A stretch of 7,626 nucleotides of DNA from a virus (IMGVR_UViG_2541047761_000008:1-7626); one strand, 5' to 3'. Shown: positions 1,628-6,012, counted from the first letter of the stretch. A program made the numbers and translations. The notes: a model not told the origin generated them from the sequence alone.

Positions 1628-2452
1628 ATGTCTCAGAACTTAGACGCAACCGCAATTAATCAAATCCATGCCCTTATTTCTGCTCAGGGTGTTAATGAAA
1701 TTATCAGTAAGATTGGTGCCGACGCAGTGGCATTACCTGAAAATTTCCGCATTCATGATCTGGAAAAATTTAATTTAAATCGCTTCCGTTTCCGTGGTGC
1801 GCTTTCCACTGCCAACATCGATGACTTTACCCGTTATTCTAAAGATCTTGCAGATGAAGGCACCCGCTGCTTTATCGATGCCGATAATATGCGTGCCGTC
1901 AGTGTGCTTAACCTGGGTACTATTGGTGAACCAGGTCACGCAGATAACACCGCCACACTCAAACTGAAAAAGACAGCACCGTTCTCTGCTCTGTTGTCTG
2001 TTAACGGCGAGCGTAACTCCCAGAAGTCACTGGCAGAATGGATTGAAGACTGGGCCGACTATCTTGTGGGCTTTGATGCTAATGGTGACGCTATTAAGGC
2101 AACAAAAGCGGCTGCGGCGGTCCGTAAAATCACGATTGAAGCAAACCAGACCGCTGATTTTGAAGATAATGACTTCAGCGGCAAACGCTCCCTGATGGAG
2201 TCTGTCGAAGCGAAGACCAAAGATATTATGCCAGTGGCATTTGAATTTAAATGCGTTCCGTTTGAAGGCCTGAAAGAACGTCCGTTTAAATTACGCCTCA
2301 GCATTATCACTGGCGATCGTCCTGTACTGGTTCTGCGCATTATTCAGCTGGAAGCAGTGCAGGAAGAAATGGCTAACGAATTTCGTGATCTGCTTGTTGA
2401 GAAATTCAAGGACAGCAAAGTAGAAACCTTTATTGGTACTTTTACCGCCTGA
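1628..2452 (+). CDS. yfdQ: YfdQ-like protein (DUF2303 family), 274 aa
   Basis: ATG at 1628 with SD GAGG (1617-1620). N-terminus [20 protein letters not shown] and the 274-aa length match recalled E. coli YfdQ; gene order yfdP-yfdQ-yfdR-yfdS is conserved. Confidence 0.88.
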
Positions 2453-2464
2453 TTTCATTACTGC

Positions 2465-2486
2465 AAATGCCCCTGCGGGGGCATTT
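2465..2486 (+). terminator. Stem-loop between yfdQ and yfdR; weak candidate intrinsic terminator or attenuator
   Basis: AAATGCCCC (2465-2473) / TGCG loop / GGGGCATTT (2478-2486), a 9-bp stem. The U-rich stretch is short (AUUUAU), so termination would be partial at best. Confidence 0.3.
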
Positions 2487-2579
2487 ATGGAAACGTAATT
2501 GACTCAATAATCGCCGGATGGTGAGGGCTTTCTTTTACCAGAATTCAGCGCGGTGCAGCGCATATACGTGGAGAACAAA

Positions 2580-3116
2580 ATGTCATTTATTAAAACTTTT
2601 TCCGGGAAGCATTTTTATTATGACAGGATAAATAAAGACGACATCGTGATTAACGATATCGCGGTTTCCCTTTCAAATATCTGTCGCTTTGCAGGACATC
2701 TTTCACACTTCTACAGTGTCGCCCAGCATGCGGTGCTTTGCAGCCAGCTGGTGCCGCAGGAATTTGCTTTTGAAGCGTTAATGCATGATGCAACAGAAGC
2801 GTATTGCCAGGATATTCCCGCTCCACTGAAACGCCTTCTTCCTGACTATAAACGGATGGAAGAAAAAATAGACGCCGTAATCCGTGAGAAATACGGGTTA
2901 CCCCCGGTTATGAGCACGCCTGTGAAATATGCCGATCTCATCATGCTGGCAACCGAACGCCGCGATCTCGGGCTTGATGATGGCTCTTTCTGGCCAGTAC
3001 TGGAAGGTATCCCGGCAACAGAAATGTTCAAAGTTATTCCACTGGCTCCGAGCCATGCCTACGGGATGTTTATGGAACGTTTTAACGAGTTATCGGAGTT
3101 ACGCAAATGCGCATGA
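2580..3116 (+). CDS. yfdR: HD-domain 5'-deoxynucleotidase YfdR (178 aa)
   Basis: ATG at 2580 with SD GGAG (2570-2573) gives 178 aa starting MSFIKTFSGKHFYYD, matching recalled K-12 YfdR; the track start at 2553 is an upstream GTG. HD-domain motif H...HD is present (SVAQHAV ... ALMHDATEAY). Confidence 0.9.
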   Translation: MSFIKTFSGKHFYYDRINKDDIVINDIAVSLSNICRFAGHLSHFYSVAQHAVLCSQLVPQEFAFEALMHDATEAYCQDIPAPLKRLLPDYKRMEEKIDAVIREKYGLPPVMSTPVKYADLIMLATERRDLGLDDGSFWPVLEGIPATEMFKVIPLAPSHAYGMFMERFNELSELRKCA

Positions 3117-3469
3117 ATGTTTTCGAAATGGAAGGGTTTCTTCGCGGGAAATGTGTACCACGAGATCTGAAAGTGAATGAAACAAATGCTGAGTACCTAG
3201 TACGTAAATTCGATGCGCTTGAAGCTAAATGTGCGGCACTGGAAAACAAAATAATACCAGTGTCAGCTGAACTGCCGCCAGCAAATGAAAGTGTTCTGTT
3301 ATTTGATGCTAACGGAGAAGGCTGGCTAATTGGCTGGCGTTCTCTCTGGTACACCTGGGGACAAAAAGAAACCGGAGAATGGCTGTGGACATTTCAGGTC
3401 GGGGACCTTGAAAACGTCAATATCACTCACTGGGCAGTAATGCCGAAAGCACCGAAGAATAAAAAATGA
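3107..3469 (+). CDS. yfdS: YfdS-like protein with C-terminal DUF551-type domain (120 aa)
   Basis: Start overlaps the yfdR stop by 10 nt. The 120-aa length matches recalled YfdS. C-terminus GWLIGWRS...ITHWAVMPKAP is typical of DUF551. Confidence 0.85.
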   Translation: MRMNVFEMEGFLRGKCVPRDLKVNETNAEYLVRKFDALEAKCAALENKIIPVSAELPPANESVLLFDANGEGWLIGWRSLWYTWGQKETGEWLWTFQVGDLENVNITHWAVMPKAPKNKK

Positions 3470-4773: not shown

Positions 4774-5535
4774 ATGACCACTATTACCAAAGAGCGACTG
4801 CTGACAATCAGGCAGTGGCGCGAAACATACGGACCTGGTAGCAACGTTGTACTGCCAGCAGAAGAAGCGGAAGAACTGGCACGAATTGCTCTGGCATCGC
4901 TGGAAGCAGAGCCGATAGGTTTCCGTTGCAGGCGCAATGATAACCTTGGTGATTGGAGTTACGTATATCATCGAGAGCCAGATGATTTTGAGCGCAAACA
5001 TTTAGTGATAGAGGGCATTTACGCCGCCCCTCCAGCACCGGTAGTGCCTGAAGAAGCAACTCCGGAAAACGTAGAAATGCTCTCTGGCTATGTTTCAACG
5101 TACAAATTAACCGATAGCGAGCGCGATATTGCTGCCGAAATATGGAACGCCTGCCGCGCCGCCATGCTTCAGTCCGGAAACTTTCGGGAAAACAAGAATT
5201 CGTCAACCAATAATTTTCGGGAAATCGCGGAAACGTCAACCAACTATCCGGCAATTCCTAGTGAGGTGTTGTCCGCAATCCTGAAGGTTGCCAGGATTCG
5301 TGCCGATTTCGATGATTTTGACGGTGACAGGCGAGGTATCGGTGATTGTCTGGATGAGGCTGAGCAAGAGCTTATCGTTACCATTAACAAATATGCCAGT
5401 CAGTTGGCAGCAGAACCTATAGCGCCTAATGACGTTCGAGAGCAGACAGCCATTCCACAAGTTCCGGTAACTCCGGATGGTTGGATAAGCTGTAGTGAGC
5501 GAATGCCGGACGACAGGCAGGAGGTGAATCAATGA
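4774..5535 (+). CDS. Hypothetical prophage protein (253 aa) ending in the start of a DUF551-like motif; internal 11-residue tandem repeat
   Basis: ATG at 4774 with an AAGGA-type SD. The C-terminal WISCSERMPDDRQEV parallels YfdS residues IPVSAELPPANESVLLF but stops where the DUF551 body should continue. Contains the tandem repeat NFRENKNSSTN / NFREIAETSTN. Confidence 0.8.
   Translation: MTTITKERLLTIRQWRETYGPGSNVVLPAEEAEELARIALASLEAEPIGFRCRRNDNLGDWSYVYHREPDDFERKHLVIEGIYAAPPAPVVPEEATPENVEMLSGYVSTYKLTDSERDIAAEIWNACRAAMLQSGNFRENKNSSTNNFREIAETSTNYPAIPSEVLSAILKVARIRADFDDFDGDRRGIGDCLDEAEQELIVTINKYASQLAAEPIAPNDVREQTAIPQVPVTPDGWISCSERMPDDRQEVNQ
5179..5243 (+). repeat. Imperfect 33-bp tandem direct repeat (2 copies), in frame within the 253-aa CDS
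   Basis: Copy 1 AACTTTCGGGAAAACAAGAATTCGTCAACCAA (5179-5210) and copy 2 TAATTTTCGGGAAATCGCGGAAACGTCAACCAA (5211-5243), about 75% identical. They encode the protein-level repeat NFRE...STN twice. Confidence 0.5.
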
Positions 5536-5615
5536 GCTGGCCTGATGCAATCGTAACTCTGGGGGTGGTCTTCGCAGCAGCGTTTGTTGTGTTCTCGATT
5601 TGTCGATGGGGATAA
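5532..5615 (+). CDS. Candidate 27-aa hydrophobic (single-TM-like) small peptide
   Basis: ATG at 5532 overlaps the previous stop (ATGA) and sits 8 nt after a perfect SD AGGAGG (5518-5523). Translation MSWPDAIVTLGVVFAAAFVVFSICRWG has an 18-residue hydrophobic core. Below the track length cutoff; not verified by homology. Confidence 0.4.
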   Translation: MSWPDAIVTLGVVFAAAFVVFSICRWG

Positions 5616-5619
5616 CCAC

Positions 5620-5862
5620 ATGTTCGCTTTGATTCAACGCGGTCAGATATACACGGACAGAGCTGGATACCCCGTGGTGATTACTCGCATCACTGAGCAC
5701 TCAGTGTTCTTTCGACGGATGGACGGACGATCCGGGCGGGTACGCATTGGTGAGTTAAACTGCCTGTTCGAACATATTGACCACCAGGAGTACCGCAAAA
5801 TTCTCGCGGACACTGAGCAGGAAAAGCACCTGAAAAAATTACGAGCCATAAAAAGGAAGTAA
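5620..5862 (+). CDS. DUF4222-like small prophage protein (80 aa from ATG 5620; the track uses a TTG at 5584)
   Basis: ATG at 5620 with a GGGGA SD-like motif (5607-5611). Sequence MFALIQRGQIYTDRAGYPVVITRITEHSVFFRRMDGRSGRVRIGELNCLFEHI resembles recalled DUF4222 proteins found near prophage xis/int. Confidence 0.7.
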   Translation: MFALIQRGQIYTDRAGYPVVITRITEHSVFFRRMDGRSGRVRIGELNCLFEHIDHQEYRKILADTEQEKHLKKLRAIKRK

Positions 5863-5865
5863 AGA

Positions 5866-6012
5866 ATGAATAAAGCATTTGAACGATGGGTCCACCAGCG
5901 TTACGGCAATCGCTATGACCTGACGCGAGATGTTGACGGCTTCTACTGTCGTGAAGTTGTGAAGCGAATGTTTGAAGTGTGGTGCCACTGCCGTGGGCTG
6001 AGTGTTGTGTGA
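5866..6012 (+). CDS. Candidate 48-aa Cys/His-containing small protein
   Basis: ATG at 5866 with SD AAGGAAG (5853-5859, 6-nt spacing), starting 3 nt after the upstream stop and ending 8 nt before xis. Translation MNKAFERWVHQRYGNRYDLTRDVDGFYCREVVKRMFEVWCHCRGLSVV. Absent from the track because it is under 60 aa. Confidence 0.45.
   Translation: MNKAFERWVHQRYGNRYDLTRDVDGFYCREVVKRMFEVWCHCRGLSVV

Follow-up and report, generated by a model that had tools for sequence, protein, structure and literature searches.

A coupled 27-codon open reading frame in lambdoid prophage early regions probably encodes a small inner-membrane peptide

Results

A small open reading frame overlaps the end of an early-region gene

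The 7,626-nucleotide (nt) viral sequence IMGVR_UViG_2541047761_000008:1-7626 (the window, meaning the whole stretch that was analyzed) is the left early arm of a lambdoid prophage, with all genes on the + strand. This study concerns a small open reading frame (ORF) at positions 5532-5615, which an earlier sequence-only reading had taken for a translationally coupled membrane-peptide gene missed by annotation. Every element named in that reading is present in the window, including AGGAGG at good spacing before the ATG and the ATGA overlap with the upstream ORF (4774..5535), and its remark that the DUF551 domain of the upstream gene is truncated was also right. The features of the small gene and its immediate surroundings are listed below.

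5532..5615, + strand: small gene, with ATG at 5532, 27 sense codons and TAA at 5613-5615; product MSWPDAIVTLGVVFAAAFVVFSICRWG
5519..5524, + strand: Shine-Dalgarno (SD) sequence AGGAGG, with a 7-nt spacer to the ATG; it also encodes part of the upstream gene's C-terminal QEVNQ
5532..5535, + strand: ATGA start/stop overlap with the upstream gene, whose TGA is at 5533-5535; the putative site of termination-reinitiation coupling
5547..5603, + strand: transmembrane (TM) helix, residues 6-24, predicted from hydrophobicity scales
5608..5612, + strand: GGGGA in the small gene's last codons, read from the sequence 7 nt 5' of the DUF4222 ATG; a likely candidate SD for the DUF4222 gene downstream

At this site the window reads ...GACGACAGGCAGGAGGTGAATCAATGAGCTGG.... 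Within the window, the small ORF by itself is not beyond chance: 32 ORFs of at least 20 amino acids (aa) are listed between 4800 and 6400, and AGGAGG-N5-9-ATG occurs once against 0.23 expected, with at least one occurrence in 42 of 200 shuffled sequences. Its significance therefore comes from conservation across relatives rather than from the ORF or SD alone.

The reading frame is conserved across diverged relatives

A sensitive blastn search with positions 5515-5625 as the query found copies at only ~75% nucleotide identity in 933W, VT2-Sakai, Stx2a_1447 and the Vequintavirinae phage Av-05. In each of these distant records the annotated gene stops ~19 nt into the match and is followed by an unannotated gap holding a 27-codon ORF that overlaps the upstream gene; the encoded peptides are MTWPEAFANVGTVMAVVLVVYSICRWR in 933W, MTWPDAFAIVGVAMSIALIVFAICRWG in Stx2a_1447 and MTWPEAFTTVGVVMAVAFAVYSVCRWG in Av-05. 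The small ORF was unannotated in the eight phage records examined. IMG/VR was then scanned with a degenerate pattern that fixed only M-[ST]-W-P-[DE]-A and C-R-W at the correct spacing and left the stop codon free, and 126 of the 127 hits had a stop exactly after codon 27. Over the 17 pattern-free codons (7-23), column entropy was 0.40, 0.28 and 0.76 at codon positions 1, 2 and 3, respectively, making third positions about twice as variable as first and second positions.

The ratio of non-synonymous to synonymous substitution (dN/dS) was calculated by the Nei-Gojobori method for 61 distinct alleles in all six frames.

Sense frame: dN/dS 0.31; stops in 0/61 alleles
Other two forward frames: dN/dS 1.06 and 1.98; stops in 55-60 of 61 alleles
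Codon-aligned antisense frame (open minus-strand ORF 5529..5621): dN/dS 1.36; stops in 10/61 alleles
Third antisense frame: dN/dS 2.19; stops in 38/61 alleles
Antisense frame sharing third positions: dN/dS 0.27; stops in 1/61 alleles

A mirror signal is expected in the antisense frame with the same third positions, which accounts for its value of 0.27; no start-codon ORF of at least 20 aa is listed for that frame in the window. The codon-aligned antisense ORF (30 aa, window 5529-5621, minus strand) is open, but its dN/dS exceeds 1 and 10 of the 61 alleles interrupt it. Shigella phage POCJ13 annotates its counterpart as gp73 (L227 1506-1634, minus strand) instead of the small gene, probably a wrong-strand gene call.

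Because the first alleles had been collected by motif, a second sample was drawn with the first 20 nt of the DUF4222 gene as its sole anchor, which gave 126 loci with enough upstream DNA. An intact homolog of 27-28 codons was found in 122 of these, including alleles outside the first pattern (MNWPEAFTAVGVAIAVAFILYSLFRWG, a P4R variant and MNWSDV...), and three had unrelated DNA upstream. The case that the sequence-only reading had named as speaking against a gene, an interrupted frame between conserved flanks, was seen in a single locus, and there it took the form of an in-frame 14-codon deletion that leaves a 13-aa remnant (MSWPDAFAIYHWG).

Clustering at 88% identity divided the small genes into 11 lineages with pairwise nucleotide identity down to 63%, all of which have the ATG, 27 codons and the stop. 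In a neutral simulation, the observed substitution numbers were placed randomly along a minimum spanning tree of the 11 lineages; the joint probability that the ATG, open frame and stop would all survive was ~10^-6.9. The core (residues 7-23, 17 residues) is free of charged or polar residues in 9 of the 11 real lineages compared with 22% of the surviving simulated sequences. The indels observed are in frame, namely the 13-aa remnant above and a 24-aa variant, MSWPEAFAIVGVAMAIAAIFIFWG, in Salmonella phage SJ46 (P1-like; L232 901-975), which lacks S-I-C-R and retains the N-terminal motif and the final WG; the family therefore extends beyond the search patterns used. Among the phage records this variant occurs in SJ46 only. 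A tblastn search of phages and plasmids with the 24-aa variant returned no hits, not even itself, presumably because of low-complexity masking, and nhmmer over all fetched loci found no degenerate or decayed extra copies. The check proposed in the sequence-only reading, conservation of the ORF judged by synonymous versus non-synonymous change, thus came out in favor of a gene on dN/dS, codon periodicity and intactness in the 11 lineages. These comparisons make it very probable that 5532..5615 is a genuine gene and that purifying selection maintains its small hydrophobic peptide.

The small gene behaves as a one-gene mosaic module

The upstream context was classified for 199 loci, and the upstream proteins fall into at least six groups.

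Full-length DUF551: 86 loci
Window-type truncated DUF551: 34 loci
Family ending ...KLPDKAMDYLERNGLISVEDILR, without Pfam match: 47 loci
933W L0139-like: 10 loci
190-aa protein ending AQEHPE: 14 loci
Others, including the Av-05 protein: a few loci

An overlap of the small ORF with the upstream stop, of either 4 nt (ATGA) or 1 nt, is seen in most of these loci. The SD lies in one of two contexts, AGGAGGTGAATCA or GGAGGATATTTTACG, and is strong in both; AGGAGG is retained in most related loci and GGAGGA is found in the second upstream context. Upstream proteins that are otherwise unrelated end alike, in QEVNQ, KVNQ or MNQ (window 5521-5535; L002, L004, L005 and L006), since the upstream frame runs through the SD and spacer of the small gene. 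To judge from these sequences, an incoming module dictates the C-terminal tail of whichever gene precedes it.

The downstream side is equally varied: some loci have the DUF4222 gene at +4 or mok/hok-sok at about +150, and others have GC-rich hairpin-like repeats, an overlapping 80-aa gene or nothing. DUF4222 is thus a neighbor at the window locus and not an obligate partner, as the downstream DNA differs between loci. Upstream and downstream types combine freely; therefore, the mobile unit is the SD, the ORF and its stop, and the small gene behaves as a one-gene mosaic module. The mok/hok-sok cassette lies ~150 nt downstream of the small gene in ~40% of the IMG/VR loci, for example in 933W (L004 1516-1965), and in such loci the hok promoter region would abut or overlap the small gene's 3' end.

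The DUF551 deletion ends upstream of the small gene

The protein encoded by 4774..5535 matches the DUF551 profile at positions 1-16 of 68 only (Pfam search). Alignment with the full-length relatives in Stx2a_1447 and PhiR12_1 indicated that ~52 codons were lost in frame between two CAG triplets.

5518..5520, + strand: CAG at the deletion junction; the full-length relatives have CAG at both ends

The deletion ends upstream of the SD and leaves the final codons, the SD and the small ORF untouched. The truncated form was found in 34 fetched loci, always with the window-type peptide allele. On this comparison the small ORF predates the deletion and is independent of it.

The product is predicted to be a single-pass membrane peptide

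For residues 6-24, the Kyte-Doolittle 19-residue mean is 2.63 and the Hessa scale sum is -1.85 kcal/mol. The product is thus predicted to form a single TM helix, in line with the earlier description of it as a single-helix membrane peptide, and its 27-aa length with one bilayer-long hydrophobic helix places it among small single-pass membrane proteins (up to 50 aa). An acidic N-terminal cap (MSWPD) is followed by the ~19-residue hydrophobic helix and a basic/aromatic C-terminal cap (CRWG); the positive-inside rule, applied to the acidic residue 5 and Arg25, suggests a topology with the N terminus out and the C terminus in. The 38 pattern-selected peptide variants all have W3, R25 and W26, and P4, A6, G11, S22 and C24 are nearly invariant in them; the first search pattern, however, required W3, P4, A6, C24, R25 and W26, and the relaxed pattern still required W3, R25 and W26. 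Core positions 8, 10, 12, 14 and 19 vary among hydrophobic residues, and no helical-face periodicity of this variability was detected at 100 degrees (p = 0.64).

Searches of PHROGs, NCBIfam and Pfam with four alleles gave nothing significant; the best match was phrog_22915, "membrane protein," at E = 0.1 for one allele. Several candidate identities were rejected. A lipoprotein signal peptide does not fit, as the n-region is acidic (MSWPD), the candidate box F-S-I-C has Ile at -1, and the Cys is not universal, being replaced by Phe in the MNWPEAF...SLFRWG allele group and absent from SJ46. The peptide is not a DUF551 protein, having no match to PF04448 (no Pfam hit at E ≤1). A programmed frameshift that would fuse it to the upstream protein was dismissed because there is no slippery heptamer at GTGAATCAATGA; such a fusion is also opposed by the sampled DUF551 proteins from the peptide's clusters, which do not contain the peptide sequence. 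On sequence comparison, the peptide would represent a new, uncharacterized family of a known kind, the small membrane proteins of phages and bacteria, without similarity to described families.

The small gene is probably translated from the early transcript

Scans of the region found no promoter-like sites on either strand and no terminator-like sites beyond chance. A 136-nt region around the gene folds worse than 198 of 200 shuffles (z = +1.96), consistent with a less structured mRNA, and an Rfam scan at E ≤1 matched no family. Given the lack of an own promoter in these scans, the unstructured region and the lack of an Rfam family, we infer that termination-reinitiation on the polycistronic early message yields the peptide. 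The consensus SD at 7 nt, the ATGA overlap, the unstructured mRNA and the selection at the protein level point indirectly to translation.

Distribution and annotation

Among 185,579 species representatives, the strict motif was confined to Escherichia and Shigella, bar three very short contigs elsewhere. These three (L219, L221 and L223) are perfect motif hits on contigs of 369-2875 nt from Xanthomonas pisi, a Planctomyces metagenome-assembled genome and Acinetobacter idrijaensis, and are most likely E. coli or phage contamination of the assemblies. A tblastn search returned 94 phage records, comprising Shiga toxin (Stx) phages of the Stx1 and Stx2 types, P1-like phages, Av-05-like phages and one "Actinobacillus" phage with an E. 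coli-like locus; the small ORF was not found in phage lambda by this search. Of 5426 complete E. coli genomes, 182 carry the window-type allele and 1610 (~30%) the commonest allele group, which reaches 7 copies per genome and occupies 163 places on plasmids. A third allele query matched 1300 genomes that overlap in part with those of the commonest group. Carriers of the small gene include the Stx phages 933W and VT2-Sakai and prophages of O104:H4 outbreak-lineage strains.

An 84-nt gene falls under the length limits of gene finders. The sequence-only reading had called the ORF unannotated, which holds for the window allele: the 84 nt are left empty in the RefSeq record of E. coli AR_0013, whose prophage is 100% identical to the window over 5300-5900 and whose integrase gene adjoins mlrA, and among the matches listed from the 182 window-allele genomes, most have no annotation under the ORF interior. 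In two commonest-allele loci examined, the RefSeq annotation under the match is the last base of the upstream gene only. There are two exceptions. Where an in-frame ATG lies upstream, the Prokaryotic Genome Annotation Pipeline (PGAP) calls an N-extended version of 40 aa (WP_021501359.1), and sibling 27-aa alleles are recorded in GenBank as "hypothetical," "bacteriophage" or "prophage protein" and occasionally misnamed "DUF551 domain-containing protein." Clusters at 90% identity place 27-aa peptides with DUF551 proteins of 121-185 aa that do not contain the peptide; the name looks like an artifact of clustering or of name propagation from the neighboring gene.

A protein homology search with the 40-aa extended version returned only four near-identical proteins; therefore, protein databases are nearly blind to the small-peptide family. 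The window's exact peptide is absent from a collection of 15 billion proteins. The peptide strings were not found in a literature text search of 8 million papers, nor in the supplements of a ribosome profiling (Ribo-seq) paper on Sakai and of an Enterobacteriaceae microproteome paper. The Ribo-seq screen of enterohemorrhagic E. coli Sakai considered only ORFs of at least 30 aa and so could not have reported a 27-aa gene. SMP7 of a CFT073 study was considered as the same peptide and rejected, as it is a different, 63-aa ORF.

Neighboring genes

The window begins with a repressor C terminus, followed by DUF2303, HD-domain and DUF551 genes, an Ead/Ea22 gene, the truncated-DUF551 gene and the small ORF; after it come DUF4222, a 48-aa ORF, a DUF1233 excisionase gene and the integrase gene. 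The two genes that flank the small gene are as follows.

4774..5535, + strand: upstream early-region gene, 253 aa; its last codons hold the small gene's SD, and its DUF551 domain is cut by the in-frame deletion
5620..5862, + strand: DUF4222 gene, which begins 4 nt past the small gene's stop

The 48-aa ORF at 5866-6012, right after DUF4222 (MNKAFERWVHQRYGNRYDLTRD...), has no Pfam match; its counterparts accompany DUF4222 in all loci examined and are labeled hypothetical protein in RefSeq and phage records. The window holds a second DUF551 gene (3107..3469), and the small peptide does not come after it. This gene is part of a DUF2303/HD-domain/DUF551 trio (window 1628-3469) that resembles yfdQ-yfdR-yfdS of the K-12 CPS-53 prophage. 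Overexpression of the yfdQ-yfdR-yfdS cluster is described in PMC4776307 as inhibiting replication initiation.

In the window and the Stx-phage loci examined, the small gene lies among accessory genes of the ea/DUF551 type, and in vB_EcoS-666R9 it follows replication genes. No lysis genes adjoin it in the window, in those Stx-phage loci or in vB_EcoS-666R9.

Discussion

Taken as a whole, the data are best explained by a mosaic single-pass inner-membrane peptide that is made with the early operon and modulates a membrane protein, and we put the probability of this explanation at about 0.7. The proposal that 5532..5615 is a genuine coupled small membrane-peptide gene missed by annotation is supported by the conservation of the frame, by the SD and overlap behind unrelated genes, and by the predicted TM helix. 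The roles put forward in the sequence-only reading, as toxin, holin-like modulator or superinfection-exclusion factor, are candidates. The parts of the explanation differ in strength: the ORF, its SD and overlap, conservation at the protein level, modular mobility and prevalence are shown by the sequences; a single-pass inner-membrane protein produced with the early operon, with its translation, topology and timing, is a strong inference; and modulation of a membrane protein as the mode of action is a guess. A self-contained module of SD, ORF and stop moves among the accessory regions of Escherichia and Shigella phages; in the window it is found in the left early region, with the ea/DUF551 genes on one side and DUF4222-xis-int on the other. 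Ribosomes would end the upstream gene at its TGA and restart at the overlapping ATG, aided by a consensus SD in unstructured mRNA, so the peptide would be made when the phage infects or is induced, and a lysogen would not detectably make it from an own promoter. In the membrane it may contact a host or phage membrane protein, as a small modulator like MgtS, AcrZ or MgrB or as an exclusion factor, rather than form a non-specific pore. Contact with a membrane protein is suggested because the core varies freely while both membrane-interface motifs are nearly invariant. A modulator or exclusion factor is favored over a pore toxin because the interface motifs are kept (partly an effect of how the alleles were collected), the core is free, and the translation signals are strong and unregulated.

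Several observations weigh against this explanation. The dN/dS of 0.31 is only moderate, and the mirror value of 0.27 on the antisense strand means that the choice of strand relies on the ATG, SD, stop and hydrophobicity. Most alleles were gathered with patterns that fix the terminal motifs, which inflates the apparent terminal conservation, and the DUF4222-anchored sample holds few deep lineages. Terminal conservation could also be partly at the nucleotide level, reflecting the restart region at the 5' end and the next gene's SD at the 3' end. One allele group has Phe in place of Cys24, and the SJ46 variant lacks both Cys24 and Arg25. Finally, the lack of helical-face periodicity (p = 0.64) leaves no positive sign of a helix-packing interface.

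A membrane-damaging peptide, that is, a Hok/TisB/DinQ-like toxin or holin-like helper that depolarizes or permeabilizes the inner membrane when the early operon is on, would also be short and hydrophobic. A 27-aa product with one TM helix has the size and hydrophobicity of a type I toxin, the gene lies ~150 nt upstream of mok/hok-sok in ~40% of the IMG/VR loci, and a core that tolerates many substitutions fits a need for bulk hydrophobicity alone. We consider such an activity unlikely, since a consensus SD in unstructured mRNA and coupling to an early gene are the reverse of the tight translational silencing seen in type I toxins. Moreover, promoter and Rfam scans of the region found no antisense promoter or known RNA family, the gene is not in a lysis cassette, the interface motifs are more conserved than the core, and strong early depolarization would be expected on general grounds to hurt phage replication. 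The start/stop overlap in most loci could instead point to a membrane anchor or partner of the protein encoded just upstream (typically DUF551), kept at a fixed ratio by translational coupling; a DUF551-type gene, full or truncated, precedes the peptide in 120 of the 199 classified loci, and databases cluster the two and sometimes give the peptide the DUF551 name. This is highly improbable given that the upstream proteins form at least six groups, several without a Pfam match or DUF551, and that the DUF551 proteins in the shared clusters do not contain the peptide sequence. In the window the DUF551 domain is deleted yet the peptide is intact, an arrangement found in 34 loci, and the second DUF551 gene (3107..3469) has no peptide after it.

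There is a very slight chance that the DNA or RNA is what is conserved and the peptide is irrelevant, the segment serving as a recombination "linker" at a mosaic boundary or as an ORF that passes ribosomes onward. The segment does lie exactly at mosaic junctions, with differing genes on either side; the likely DUF4222 SD falls within its last codons, Pro4 is nearly always encoded by CCT, and there is very little variation in the first 18 nt. Set against this, variation falls mostly at third codon positions with a dN/dS of 0.31, and the hydrophobic core lacks polar residues in 9/11 lineages versus 22% of simulated intact sequences. Many loci have no coding sequence next, just hairpins or a ~150-nt gap; divergence to 63% identity is poor for a homologous-recombination linker; and folding and Rfam searches found no stable or known RNA structure. 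The fallback offered in the sequence-only reading, a fortuitous open frame in the scar of the DUF551 truncation, draws on the finding that neither a 27-codon ORF nor an SD-like hexamer would be surprising by chance in the window. It is refuted by the position of the in-frame deletion, which stops wholly upstream of the SD, and by the occurrence of the same ORF behind 86 full-length DUF551 genes and behind upstream protein groups without a DUF551 match; the ORF is also intact in 11 diverged lineages and 122 of the 126 anchored loci, and we give this explanation almost no weight.

Within the favored explanation of an early-operon membrane-protein modulator, a more specific version is that the peptide targets a host inner-membrane complex early in infection or induction, either the DNA-entry route, excluding competing phages, or FtsH/HflKC, setting the lysis-lysogeny balance. 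This is speculative and somewhat unlikely; if true, the peptide would be a hidden contributor to phenotypes credited to the exo-xis/ea region.

The small membrane proteins of E. coli include YohP (27 aa), MgtS (31), PmrR (29), KdpF (29), AcrZ (49) and MgrB (47), and several of them act by binding a larger membrane protein. The group is reviewed in PMC12648545, and YohP is treated in PMC12719787. The phage peptide resembles them in size class, in having a single predicted TM helix and no other domain, and in having been overlooked by gene finders. It differs in showing no sequence similarity to them (no Pfam or NCBIfam hit) and in being phage-borne, mosaic and multi-copy, and it would be expressed through coupling in an early operon rather than from a stress-regulated promoter of its own. 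With the type I toxins (Hok/Gef, TisB, DinQ, Ibs and ShoB) it shares a short, hydrophobic, predicted inner-membrane product, and hok/sok is next downstream in many loci. Unlike them, it is an operon gene with a consensus SD for which no antisense RNA, own promoter or sequestered SD was found, and it is shorter than Hok and without sequence similarity to it. Membership of the type I toxins was rejected, as no own transcription unit with an RNA antitoxin was found and the SD is not hidden by mRNA structure. Membership of the holins or antiholins was likewise rejected, as no endolysin/spanin lysis cassette adjoins the gene in the loci examined.

The lambdoid exo-xis/ea genes (Ea22, Ea8.5, Orf60a, Orf61, Orf63 and Orf73) are early accessories of the PL operon that affect the choice between lysis and lysogeny; Stx phages conserve them (PMC3824215, PMC8614690, PMC10834534). 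The small gene shares their genomic neighborhood, and the literature search with the peptide strings returned none of the exo-xis/ea papers. The small proteins of this region are soluble and 55-180 aa long; to our knowledge, none is a membrane peptide. T4 Imm, HK97 gp15 and P22 SieA, which block superinfection, are phage inner-membrane proteins of accessory regions, non-essential and mosaic. The peptide is like them in being phage-encoded, predicted to lie in the inner membrane, accessory and mosaic; they are larger (~80-160 aa or more, often with several TM segments), and, unlike the exclusion proteins that temperate phages express from the prophage, the small gene has no evident promoter of its own in the promoter scan.

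The small gene would thus be an essentially unrecorded real gene that is common in E. coli genomes, often in multiple copies, and present in Stx phages. The early accessory region, which tunes lysogeny and induction in those phages and is poorly understood, gains a candidate gene. The small gene is also a clear case of a mosaic module made of one gene, in which the ribosome-binding site appears to set the C-terminal residues (QEVNQ) of the preceding gene.

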